A model generated the notes under the pieces. It did not search any database. It was not told the DNA's origin and saw nothing but the letters and a program-made list of their open reading frames with translations. A stretch of DNA of 7,420 bases. It comes from a virus (lineage: Duplodnaviria > Heunggongvirae > Uroviricota > Caudoviricetes). This document shows, piece after piece, positions 5,196-7,420 of this stretch. A program made the translations under genes and the position numbers. The stretch is taken from positions 1-7,420 of the IMG/VR virus record IMGVR_UViG_2693429700_000021. The stretch is one strand, 5' to 3'. The number at the start of each line of letters is the position of its first letter. Position 1 is the stretch's first letter.

Positions 5196-5369
5196 TCATG
5201 CTGCTTTGCGACGACGAAGCTTACCCTGCTGCTCTTTACCAGAGACAGTAGCGTGAGTGAACGCATTAGGAGCAGCCTTCATCAGAACTTCAACAGCAGC
5301 ACCCATACCTGCGAATGCTTTCATTGTGTCGAACTTAACCTGTGGCTTGGTTGCTTTTTGATCTTTCAT
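5196..5369 (-). CDS. Small hypothetical protein (57 aa), absent from the ORF track
   Basis: My own translation of the minus strand gives MKDQKATKPQVKFDTMKAFAGMGAAVEVLMKAAPNAFTHATVSGKEQQGKLRRRKAA. ATG at 5369-5367, GGGAG 6 nt upstream on the minus strand, TGA stop at 5198-5196, and the bidirectional terminator about 20 nt downstream. Confidence 0.55.
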   Translation of the reverse strand: MKDQKATKPQVKFDTMKAFAGMGAAVEVLMKAAPNAFTHATVSGKEQQGKLRRRKAA

Positions 5370-5439
5370 AGAAAACTCCCGAGACAGTAAAGGCGTCTCT
5401 AACCCTCTCTTTAAAGCTAGCTTGTTTCGCTAACTTATG

Positions 5440-5460
5440 CCAATCGATCATGTCGATTGG
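5440..5460. promoter_or_regulatory. Perfect inverted repeat CCAATCGA-N5-TCGATTGG, candidate operator
   Basis: 8-bp arms are exact reverse complements around a 5-bp spacer. It lies about 70-90 bp upstream of the small minus-strand ORF and overlaps a -35-like TTGGCA on the minus strand. No adjacent U-tract, so it is not a terminator. Confidence 0.3.
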
Positions 5461-5565
5461 TGACATCGTTTCTTAGTAGTTTAAGCACAAAACGACTGCC
5501 ATAGATGTACCTTTAAGGTAATCTGGACGGGTATCCTACAATTTGTAGCCCCTTCTCGTCTATAC

Positions 5566-6102
5566 CTACTGAGCAAATTTAAGAAAGATATCCTGCAGCT
5601 CATCAATGACTGCAGACATCACATAACCGCACTGTTCCATGCGGAAACCAAAAGACTCGTAATACTGCACCAGTTCTGGTACTGGCTCTACAATGTGGAC
5701 AACTTTACATTCAACAGCTTTACAAAATATAAAAGCACTCATAAGAGTGAGTAAAACCATGCGCCCTTTCAATGGGTGAGATTCATCTTCTCTAGAAAAC
5801 CTTTCGATCATATGGATACGAAAGATGTTTTCTTCAACCCCATAAACACAAATTGCTGCTCCTGATGGTATTCCCTGAACCCGACCTTGCTGAACAAGTT
5901 TTATGCAGAACTCATACTTTTCTCTGGAGTTGCCATAGGTGCTTAACGCATAGTCCCATTCAAGCTCACCATAGCCACCACACAGAATCTTGTAATCATC
6001 ATCACTGAGCGGACCAACAGCAAGAGGTAAGCCGACATGATCAATAATCAACTGGATATTGTTACGTACAGATTGACCTATCTCGTCTAGGGTAAGCATC
6101 AT
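5566..6102 (-). CDS. GNAT-fold-like acyltransferase candidate, atypical
   Basis: 178-aa ORF starting with tandem ATG codons (6102-6097) and ending at TAG 5568-5566. C-terminal YYESFGF resembles the conserved GNAT beta-strand (FYxxLGF), and HPLKGRMVLLTLMSAF is a weak candidate for the acetyl-CoA-binding segment. The canonical R/Q-x-x-G-x-G/A motif is not cleanly present, so the fold assignment is tentative. Confidence 0.6.
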   Translation of the reverse strand: MMLTLDEIGQSVRNNIQLIIDHVGLPLAVGPLSDDDYKILCGGYGELEWDYALSTYGNSREKYEFCIKLVQQGRVQGIPSGAAICVYGVEENIFRIHMIERFSREDESHPLKGRMVLLTLMSAFIFCKAVECKVVHIVEPVPELVQYYESFGFRMEQCGYVMSAVIDELQDIFLKFAQ

Positions 6103-6131
6103 AGACTCTCAAGCGGAACACTAAAAATCTC

Positions 6132-6137
6132 ATTATA
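6132..6137 (-). promoter_or_regulatory. Candidate -10 hexamer (TATAAT) for the GNAT-like gene
   Basis: Exact TATAAT on the minus strand, 29 nt upstream of the ATG at 6102. No good -35 match; the palindrome ATGCCcGGCAT (6148-6158) occupies the -35 region. Confidence 0.3.
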
Positions 6138-6372
6138 TCTCATTCTGATGCCCGGCATGGATTACACCTTGAAATGAAAACACCGGGTTCCCAATAGGCT
6201 CCCACAAAGTGTATAACTACTTGTTTTTCAAAAACGATACATCCTATCGAGCATTGGTGCAACGCTAAACCGACCACTCCAGTGAACGTCAGTTTTTTCA
6301 GGCATTGCGCTGGTTTGGTTGATTTTTTGCATTTCAGAATTACCGTGCATTTTCAAATGTAGAGATTATTTT

Positions 6373-6387
6373 ATCGATATATCATGG
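6373..6387 (+). repeat. 15-nt exact repeat ATCGATATATCATGG, copy 2, in the intergenic region
   Basis: Same 15-mer as 3864-3878; about 30 nt downstream is CAGGAGGCTCAATAGCG, which resembles the GGAGGCAACCAATGA gene-junction motif. Confidence 0.7.
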
Positions 6388-6644
6388 GGTTATGTTATTC
6401 AGCATCACTATTCAGGAGGCTCAATAGCGGGGTACTATACCATAACAACAGGAAGCGCCTGTCTCATTGCAAAAGAAAATTGAGATCCTCTCAAGGCATG
6501 AAGCTCTCACGAAGTGATGGAAATAATCTTATTAGCCGTTAACTTTGTTAAGGCCAATGATAAACAATCCAGGTTCGACGATAAATAAAAAATCACACAT
6601 TAAACTCTGGTGATATATCTCCCTGCTAATAGCATTGATAGAGA

Positions 6645-6676
6645 AAAAAGAACCCAATAAATATTGGGTCCTTTTA
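6645..6676 (-). terminator. Rho-independent terminator for the 235-aa minus-strand gene
   Basis: Hairpin ACCCAAT (6652-6658), loop AAAT, ATTGGGT (6663-6669). On the minus strand it is followed by a T6 run (complement of 6645-6650), about 40 nt past the stop at 6713. Confidence 0.6.
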
Positions 6677-6712
6677 TATAATGCCTTCCATACTATCGAA
6701 GAACTTCACATA

Positions 6713-7420
6713 TTATTTCTCCGATTTAACCCCGAACAAATCATAAATTAATTTAGAAGTGTCTGTAAGTATTTTAATCTCTTCCTTTGAGGTTGGGTCA
6801 AACGACTTCGCGAAGCTAATTAATTGTGGTGCAGCATCTCGCATTTTGCTTAAAATATCAGGATCGAGCGTTCCTTCATTCACCAGATGTGACATCTTAT
6901 CCAGATAGCCATCAAAATTCATTTCTCCCCCATCAGCCAGACGCTTCATCTCTCCCAGGTACTTCTTCATATCACGTTGAGATAATTTTTCAAACTGAGC
7001 TTTCAGGTAGCTCTCATTATTTTCATTAATATACACTGTTTCTGATAAATCTGCGTAGGCACTAGAATATGAAAGTGAAATTAACAGCGAAGCAAATAAT
7101 TTTAAGCTGTTGTCATCATGTTCCTGGCAGGCATTAACAAACGTTAAAAAACCAGAACCTATTGCTTGAAAATGTATATTCGCTAAAGGTTCATTATCCT
7201 TAGATTCCTCATAAAATAGCTGAACCGTGGAGGGAAGGTCATTCTTATTTTCTACATCAAAAGTACATTGTTCAATGGGCATTGCATCTTTATTATCCCC
7301 AGGATTACATATACTATTAATCGCGAAATGAAAAATAGCCCGGTCAACAACTGATGCAATAAAGTCACGATCGTTTAAATCCTCATCAGTGCAATCGTCA
7401 ATATACTTATTGACCCACAT
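6713..7420 (-). CDS. Hypothetical protein, AT-rich gene, no recognisable motif; 5' end at or beyond the window edge
   Basis: 235-codon minus-strand ORF; stop at 6715-6713, and the only Met is the last three bases of the window (7418-7420), so the true start may lie outside. The gene is markedly AT-richer than the + strand operon by eye. Confidence 0.65.
   Translation of the reverse strand: MWVNKYIDDCTDEDLNDRDFIASVVDRAIFHFAINSICNPGDNKDAMPIEQCTFDVENKNDLPSTVQLFYEESKDNEPLANIHFQAIGSGFLTFVNACQEHDDNSLKLFASLLISLSYSSAYADLSETVYINENNESYLKAQFEKLSQRDMKKYLGEMKRLADGGEMNFDGYLDKMSHLVNEGTLDPDILSKMRDAAPQLISFAKSFDPTSKEEIKILTDTSKLIYDLFGVKSEK

Follow-up and report, generated by a model that had tools for sequence, protein, structure and literature searches.

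A prophage-host junction in dusA and a two-gene module of a GNAT-fold protein and a small basic protein beside the excisionase gene of an mEp460-type prophage

The window analysed here is a stretch of 7,420 nucleotides from a tailed-phage record (IMG/VR record IMGVR_UViG_2693429700_000021), and the element in question is its last part, positions 5196-7420, where three open reading frames (ORFs) lie on the minus strand at 5196-5369 (57 aa), 5566-6102 (178 aa) and 6713-7420 (235 aa). They follow a plus-strand operon whose last genes encode a 3'-5' exonuclease and then a PrtN-family protein. The initial annotation, made from the letters alone, took that last gene for an excisionase gene (xis) and described the three minus-strand genes as one AT-rich accessory or defence block beyond a terminator. 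The ORFs are all present, the G+C content (GC) does fall past the terminator, from 0.476 in 1-5150 to 0.396 in 5196-7420, and the excisionase is supported by Pfam (PyocinActivator, 4e-23), by PHROG (phrog_1300 'excisionase', 8e-40) and by the annotation of phage mEp460, in which it is gp25. The three minus-strand genes are not a single block, however, as the origin of the sequence switches at 6246/6247. Our results showed that a lambdoid prophage of the mEp460 type is inserted in the 5' end of the host gene dusA and that its xis-side end lies in this region; it is virtually certain that the block is a chimera, phage up to 6246 and host from 6247. The phage part is a self-contained two-gene accessory module, or moron, on the minus strand, which consists of the gene of a GNAT-fold protein followed by the gene of the 57-aa basic protein, here called p57. 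The features of the region are collected in Table 1.

The junction was mapped with 5150-7420 as megablast query against 5,426 complete Escherichia coli genomes. A match was found in 4,383 of them, and at least 80% of the query was covered in only 332; in most of the 4,383 the match ran only rightward from 6247. On sampling down the match ranking, prophage-free genomes, including the K-12 derivatives EMG2 and HST04, aligned no further left than query position 1098 (window 6247), and the match at this empty site covered an intact dusA together with the DUF2713 gene; the annotated order in K-12 EMG2 is qorA, pspG, dusA, DUF2713 (yjbL/yjbM), zur. At the level of single bases the window is identical to the empty site rightward of 6247 and has no similarity to it leftward. 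In a three-way alignment of attP of mEp460, the window junction and attB of K-12 EMG2, host variants extend up to the octamer ATGCTCGA and phage variants lie beyond it, and the crossover was therefore placed in this octamer. In strain DEC9B, whose left end is 99.9% identical to the window, the prophage extends over about 43 kb up to DinI and a tyrosine integrase, beyond which dusA is restored to full length; the 5' end of this dusA comes from the phage and shares 82% identity with the native one. The gene order of mEp460 is int, attP, gp23, gp24, xis. The use of dusA as integration target by this integrase family has been published (Farrugia et al. 2015, PMC4482086). As in other dusA-integrating elements, the insertion lies in the dusA 5' end, the native 5' fragment is stranded at one junction and a substitute 5' end stands next to int at the other (in DEC9B and mEp460, outside the window). 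Nothing essential separates the present case from this known biology, but the attP-side cargo has been annotated only as hypothetical. The 61-bp att arm on the phage side is also found in dusA elements that carry neither the GNAT gene nor p57, in which the matches start at query position 1037 (window 6186), and integrase or Xis arm sites are probably located within it.

The segment 6247-7420 is ordinary host flank, because it is present under intact dusA in prophage-free genomes. The occurrence of the block in syntenic strains without the prophage had been named beforehand as evidence against cargo; it holds for this segment, which is 53% of the block, and a comparison of the locus across genomes showed on the other side that the cargo genes do vary among prophages. 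A remnant of dusA was overlooked in the initial annotation: 35 codons of the native 5' end (6247-6350) remain, and their ORF reads MKMHGNSEMQKINQ...APMLDRMYRF, the same bases of which lie in the intact K-12 dusA. In a strain 100% identical to the window this remnant is annotated as a partial tRNA-dihydrouridine synthase pseudogene. The 235-aa protein, earlier thought to be without motifs, matched Pfam DUF2713 over its whole length (E 1e-166) and is E. coli YjbM, whose gene stands alongside intact dusA in prophage-free genomes, K-12 and thousands more. The idea of an AT-rich cargo holds as far as the overall drop in GC, but the bulk of the AT-richness sits in the host part, which is the AT-richest of the block (0.370 from 6247 on versus 0.425 for the phage cargo 5178-6246). 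The GC and the GC at third codon positions (GC3) of the module are 0.42 and 0.38, below the values of about 0.48 and 0.47 in its neighbours. By PGAP, yjbL-yjbM is one frameshifted 986-bp DUF2713 pseudogene in K-12 EMG2, A14, DEC9B and the window-identical strain; the 235-aa ORF is the downstream part of this pseudogene, which runs to about 7698, past the window, and the window ends exactly at the ATG of the ORF. YjbM also matched phrog_29005 (4e-167), and about 1.3 kb of the host flank occurs on many IMG/VR 'viral' contigs (e.g. L039-L044), so that the host gene seems to have entered phage protein resources through over-extended prophage boundaries at dusA. That all three minus-strand genes are a single prophage cargo or defence block beyond the terminator is thus scarcely credible: three same-strand ORFs in lower-GC DNA adjoining xis, and the PHROG match of yjbM, would speak for it, but thousands of E. 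coli without the prophage, K-12 included, have 6247-7420 beside intact dusA, the att crossover was located at 6247-6254, the dusA remnant separates the second gene from the third, and over-extended prophage calls best explain the PHROG match.

Table 1. Features of the xis-side prophage end and its host flank (window coordinates)
Feature	Position	Strand	Remarks
Excisionase (PrtN-family) gene	4840-5148	+	last gene of the prophage early-left operon; outside the module
Rho-independent terminator of the p57 transcript	5151-5177	-	11-bp stem, 6 GC pairs, minus-strand T-run; also faces the xis operon
p57, basic small protein, 57 aa	5196-5369	-	mEp460 gp24, phrog_2741; constant downstream partner of the GNAT gene
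Exchangeable cassette	5380-6185	-	GNAT gene, its upstream region and p57 leader; replaced elsewhere by a Panacea-domain gene plus a 128/139-aa gene
Structured 5' leader of p57 mRNA, about 150 nt	5381-5528	-	hairpins at about 5521-5508, 5501-5461, 5460-5440, 5436-5414, 5409-5381
Putative internal promoter P2 for p57	5533-5562	-	-35 TAGACG (5562-5557), 18-nt spacer, -10 TAGGAT (5538-5533)
GNAT-fold protein, 177 aa	5566-6099	-	mEp460 gp23, phrog_4350; 178 aa from ATG at 6102; acidic
Candidate promoter P1	6132-6137	-	perfect -10 TATAAT, read from sequence; poor -35 in the att-adjacent version
Phage-side att arm	6186-6246		common to both cassette alleles and other dusA-integrating elements
Severed host dusA 5' end	6228-6350	-	35 native codons (6350-6247) into phage DNA, stop 6228-6230; points at the GNAT gene
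Crossover core, prophage/host junction	6247-6254		plus strand TCGAGCAT, dusA sense ATGCTCGA; from attP/junction/attB alignment
Host yjbM-dusA intergenic region	6351-6712	-	yjbM terminator 6646-6675; promoter-like site 6551-6523
Host yjbM (DUF2713)	6713-7420	-	Pfam PF10897, 1e-166, covers 1-235 of 235; no prophage cargo

The proposal of phage accessory cargo beside xis remains valid for the 57-aa and 177/178-aa genes, the third being host. Their products are 100% identical to the hypothetical proteins gp24 and gp23 of mEp460 (NC_019716), respectively, and are placed only in PHROG families of unknown function. Homologues and RefSeq entries of the larger protein begin at MLTLDEIG, which favours a start at 6099, and its true length is probably 177 aa. 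It had no match in Pfam or NCBIfam at E<=0.1; ten distant members of its family had no Pfam match either, and the solved GNATs were not reached by phmmer against the PDB or by a profile search against PDB sequences. The AlphaFold model (predicted local distance difference test, pLDDT, 92.9) had only GNAT acetyltransferases as its top structural neighbours in Foldseek, with template modelling (TM) scores of 0.5-0.6 and 8-17% identity, in a ranking too flat for subfamily assignment; a search among viral GNATs gave no close structural relative. The earlier description of an atypical GNAT-like protein was accurate, in that the predicted fold is GNAT and is invisible to sequence profiles. In an exhaustive profile search over 1.84 billion representatives the family proved small, with only 100 clusters at 50% identity. 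Its invariant residues include H97 and E100 on strand 4, the segment H109-P110-L111-x-G113-x-M115 just before helix 3, which keeps only the central Gly of the canonical loop, and Y148-x-x-x-G152-F153 in helix 4 (the 'YY.SFGF' motif), which resembles the usual GNAT '...Y..GF'. Catalysis by this protein is plausible. The p57 protein had no match in Pfam, NCBIfam or PADLOC, and modelled alone with AlphaFold2 it showed a single short helix at 23-32 and disorder in the remainder (pLDDT 60); K31 and K50 are among its conserved residues. The description of the module as undescribed was fair for these two genes, for which there is no Pfam, NCBIfam or PADLOC model, though not for the gene of YjbM: in the profile search that had been suggested for all three proteins, Pfam recognised only the 235-aa one. 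Literature searches by protein accession and by GNAT, prophage and defence terms returned no characterisation of either protein.

The two genes are kept together as a pair. Loci were taken from IMG/VR and from a set with a single genome for each species, and lineages were defined as groups at 90% identity. In all 112 loci and all 20 lineages the GNAT gene was followed on the same strand, at a distance of 96-257 bp, by a p57 homologue, and no GNAT gene without p57 was found among the 112. The p57 homologue is an ORF of 53-60 aa, on the strand of the GNAT gene, in Edwardsiella, Photorhabdus, Shewanella, Salmonella, Enterobacter, Hafnia and phage Eeyore. The two proteins diverge in parallel, with identities to the window pair (GNAT/p57) of 65/68%, 60/58%, 42/33% and 42/36%. 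Their charges are opposite throughout: the GNAT protein is acidic in 20 of 20 lineages (whole-protein isoelectric point, pI, about 4.5, range 4.3-5.5; net charge -5 to -18), and p57 is basic in all 20 (pI about 10.4, range 9.4-10.8). Purifying selection acts on the two genes alike, dN/dS being 0.10 for the GNAT gene and 0.16 for the p57 gene. Among the complete E. coli genomes the GNAT gene was present in 358/5,426 and the p57 gene in 562/5,426, so that the pair is carried by about 6.6%, O157:H7, O111 and O145 strains among them; prophages of Salmonella, Enterobacter, Edwardsiella, Photorhabdus and Shewanella carry it as well. The insertion context differs among lineages, in phage backbones that are unrelated: 2-3 are adjacent to att/xis, nine lie between DUF968/Q and methylase, holin or lysis genes, two are inside a Photorhabdus baseplate module, and six were unclassified by the markers used. 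We consider it very probable that the module is a functionally coupled two-gene moron.

Some single loci were also recorded. In Hafnia prophages the pair has a candidate defence gene of PADLOC, PDC-S33, as its neighbour: at two loci in the Q-to-lysis slot (L025 2150-3109 and L026 2051-3109) a RelA_SpoT-domain gene that matches PDC-S33 (1e-112 to 2e-119) is directly upstream of the pair. The pair occurs with the same spacing on a 204-kb plasmid of avian pathogenic E. coli (APEC) E18005 (NZ_CP126947.1 154960-155863), which may be a phage-plasmid or a carrier of an integrated prophage fragment. In Salmonella (L020 4381-4848) a gene with a helix-turn-helix and a two-transmembrane domain lies between the p57 gene and xis, which is a second insertion point.

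The place next to the excisionase gene is an exchange slot, as had been suggested. BLASTN against strain A14 showed homology only in 5100-5379 and 6186-6400, and in between A14 carries a cassette of a Panacea-domain antitoxin gene (PF13274, 2e-18) plus a 128/139-aa gene; the same cassette fills 5380-6185 in phages SKA5 and Lys8385Vzw. The GNAT gene thus alternates with a Panacea-domain toxin-antitoxin (TA) cassette, and in about 200 E. coli genomes p57 is present without the GNAT gene, with the Panacea cassette in its place. The likeness to Panacea (PanA)-type TA cassettes is that of an identical slot, from the att arm to p57, in sister prophages; the proteins are unrelated, and the Panacea cassette is an alternative allele, not a relative. 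The breakpoint of the A14 cassette falls 10 bp upstream of the p57 ATG, and within the same modules the median dS of the p57 gene is about threefold lower than that of the GNAT gene (0.65 vs 2.0). The p57 gene and its terminator may be a conserved recombination linker, or may be constrained at the nucleotide level.

The module carries a terminator and promoter-like elements of its own. A terminator of the form ...AACCCGCC-loop-GGCGGGTTTTT is found 3' of the p57 gene in most lineages and moves with the module between phages. In the window it is a G+C-rich stem-loop at 5152-5177. It was first described as bidirectional; the criteria are satisfied on the minus strand, and on the plus strand termination is plausible, with only four T's after the stem and no score. 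At the position aligned with P1, other lineages have -35 TTTACA and -10 TACAAT or TAAAAT past the terminator of the preceding gene; a sigma-70-like promoter after such a terminator is the usual arrangement upstream of the pair. P2 begins 3 nt past the GNAT stop codon, and its hexamers are positionally conserved across lineages (TAGACG...TAGGAT/TACGAT), with TTGATA-N17-TATAAT in Shewanella. No terminator was found between the stranded dusA promoter and the GNAT start at 6099, for which reason the stranded promoter would be expected to read into the pair; the promoter-like site at 6551-6523 could be this native dusA promoter.

Between the two genes the p57 mRNA has a long structured leader, the last hairpin of which abuts the Shine-Dalgarno sequence GGGAG (5381-5377). 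RNAalifold gave three aligned hairpins with compensatory changes. Over 12 related sequences, from whose alignment the structure itself was derived, 92.8% of the cells of its 22 pairs were paired versus 19-43% in slid controls, both sides had changed in 17 cells versus 0-4 in controls, and the observed covariation score was reached by none of 500 shuffles. Many G·U pairs in the leader fit the gene-sense strand only. Folding of each sequence by itself gave a variable stem, with arm sequences differing by lineage, plus a GAGAC/GTCTC hairpin near the Shine-Dalgarno sequence in nearly every lineage; the minimum free energy of the window leader is -49.2 kcal/mol (z -3.45). An Rfam scan of 5000-7420 returned only sub-threshold matches of terminator hairpins, with nothing in 5370-5565. 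A minus-strand ORF of 43 aa at 5335-5466, over the leader hairpins and the p57 start, is probably non-coding, as its indels vary between lineages. The small RNA (sRNA) sRNA-17, a 193-nt ArcA-regulated sRNA of E. coli K1, has been reported on the mEp460 prophage (PMC7719688). Its identity with the 196-bp spacer between the two genes was considered and rejected, as the window does not contain its sequence, which is located in related prophages near the immunity region (L006 13230-13251, L008 9838-9859, L003 3253-3274).

Morons, in the concept of Hendrix and Juhala, are autonomous promoter-gene-terminator insertions in lambdoid phages. The module resembles them by its scored terminator, its conserved elements that look like promoters, its lower GC and GC3, its presence, absence and swapping between similar prophages and its several positions in the backbone; it differs in having two genes, a second element of promoter type between them and a long structured leader. 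As compared to the type II TA systems of GNAT and RHH proteins (TacAT, AtaRT, KacAT), in which an RHH/DUF1778 antitoxin gene stands upstream, the enzyme gene here comes first, with a spacer of 96-257 bp across loci, and p57, which has no Pfam match, stands downstream after 196 bp in the window. The enzyme also lacks similarity to the Pfam GNAT models and, by whole-protein pI, is acidic instead of basic. Toxins of the TacT/AtaT type, which acetylate tRNA, are basic, and the acidity of the GNAT protein therefore disfavours such a toxin here. The TopAI (YjhX)/YjhQ pair of the K-12 KpLE2 remnant is closer in outline, being likewise a small protein plus an acetyltransferase-family protein of about 180 aa in prophage DNA (PMC4666372). 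The small gene of each pair has a long 5' region, which is regulatory in topAI (PMC12121999). The order is different, with the small gene before that of the GNAT and 11 bp between them, and YjhQ is a canonical Acetyltransf_1 protein: TopAI and YjhQ of K-12 match Pfam YjhX_toxin (PF09857) and Acetyltransf_1, and the window proteins match neither. Homology was rejected, the hhalign probabilities being 0.08% for p57 vs TopAI and 0.4% for the GNAT profile vs YjhQ, and TopAI/YjhQ would serve, by analogy, as a functional precedent only.

The explanation that we prefer overall, with reasonable though not high confidence, is a host-flank chimera plus a coupled two-gene phage module. The opposite charges, the disorder of p57, the lack of loci with the GNAT gene only, the Panacea swap and the PDC-S33 neighbour together favour an enzyme and a peptide that are coupled and occupy a slot in which TA and defence cargo is exchanged. 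The two products would work as a pair, in which the acidic enzyme would bind the basic p57; the chance of such a direct interaction we put slightly above even. The enzyme might acetylate p57, at its N-terminus or at the conserved K31 or K50, or p57 might hold the enzyme in check, and a separate control of the p57 level would come from its own promoter and leader. In a lysogen the native dusA promoter and first 35 codons would point at the GNAT gene, the TATAAT at 6137-6132 may add promoter activity, and the pair would be expressed from the prophage; at the other junction the phage-supplied 5' end and its promoter would take over dusA. The pair might have a TA-like or phage-exclusion function, and we hold a TA-like or defence role to be possible, on the doubtful side.

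Several observations weigh against this reading of a coupled pair. Linkage by itself could be co-transfer of neighbours, and p57 may have a role of its own, as many genomes keep it in the absence of the GNAT gene. Among Enterobacteriaceae the enzyme (66-72% identity) is less conserved than p57 (88-98%), the reverse of what is typical of antitoxins. The canonical Q/R-x-x-G-x-G/A pyrophosphate loop is unrecognisable in the GNAT-fold protein, in which the beta4-alpha3 loop has 13 residues, so the protein could be a non-catalytic fold binder. None of the three proteins matched a PADLOC-DB v2.0 defence hidden Markov model at E<=0.1. P1 and P2 are taken for promoters by their conservation, and P2 of the window matches 8 of the 12 consensus positions and is absent from the list of a consensus scan; the leader covariation was scored on the same alignment that gave its structure.

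The alternatives differ in which of the two products would act and on what. The pair might be a type II TA system in reverse order, with the GNAT enzyme as toxin and p57 as antitoxin; p57 would be labile and disordered, would be made in excess from its own promoter and would plug or cover the enzyme. This we consider rather unlikely. A little less probable still is the opposite polarity, as in TopAI/YjhQ, in which p57 would be the effector or toxin under tight translational control by its leader and the GNAT its neutraliser or modifier. The precedent is a K-12 prophage remnant with an 85-aa toxin, TopAI, and a 181-aa GNAT antitoxin, YjhQ (PMC4666372), and the long regulatory 5' region of topAI (PMC12121999) has its counterpart in the leader of p57 with a hairpin abutting the Shine-Dalgarno sequence. 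The high conservation of p57 would be expected of an effector on a conserved host target, and a GNAT gene that is never alone fits a protein acting solely on p57. Against this polarity stand the lack of homology to TopAI or YjhQ, the reversed gene order relative to topAI/yjhQ, and the roughly 200 E. coli genomes and two sequenced phages that have p57 and no GNAT gene, yet the promoter and the leader of p57 are lost there too.

The typical substrates of acidic GNATs are basic, for example polyamines, aminoglycosides or basic protein tails, and the anti-CRISPR AcrVA5 is an acetyltransferase whose target is a host or defence protein. The GNAT might be a lytic-cycle or anti-defence enzyme that acetylates a target of this last kind or else a small cationic molecule, with p57 accessory or unrelated. 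The acidity of the enzyme fits a basic substrate, generic GNATs are common in phages, and in the nine lineages with the pair between Q and the lysis genes late transcription would read through it. This would leave the strict linkage to p57 unexplained, though, and promoter-like elements and a terminator of its own are a hallmark of prophage-expressed genes; with no close structural relative among viral GNATs, we find it improbable. Less probable again is that the two genes are independent neutral passengers linked only by history, or that p57 is no real gene. Neither protein has a known family and p57 is short with a low-confidence model, but dN/dS values of 0.10 and 0.16, the retention of the pair down to 33-42% identity in Enterobacterales and Shewanella and in at least three insertion contexts, and the conservation of Shine-Dalgarno sequence, promoter-like element, leader and terminator make this very hard to accept.

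A shift in composition beside a prophage gene is no mark of cargo unless the att junction has been mapped, and the real cargo at this locus is a compact and testable candidate. The geometry at dusA offers a simple handle on expression, as the stranded host promoter points into the module in the lysogen. The two-gene module is a reasonable TA or defence candidate. As a more speculative extension, which we would call somewhat unlikely, it may represent a new phage-borne two-component family, in which an acidic acetyltransferase and a small basic protein would regulate one another, through acetylation or a plugged active site, and the amount of the basic protein would be adjusted by the leader RNA. 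Such a family would bring about abortive infection or the exclusion of superinfecting phages, or would be a new class of TA acting on something other than tRNA, and a mobile moron would carry it across prophages of Enterobacterales and Shewanella. If a TA or defence role is true, the module would add a GNAT mechanism with a non-tRNA target and a new cis-regulatory RNA.

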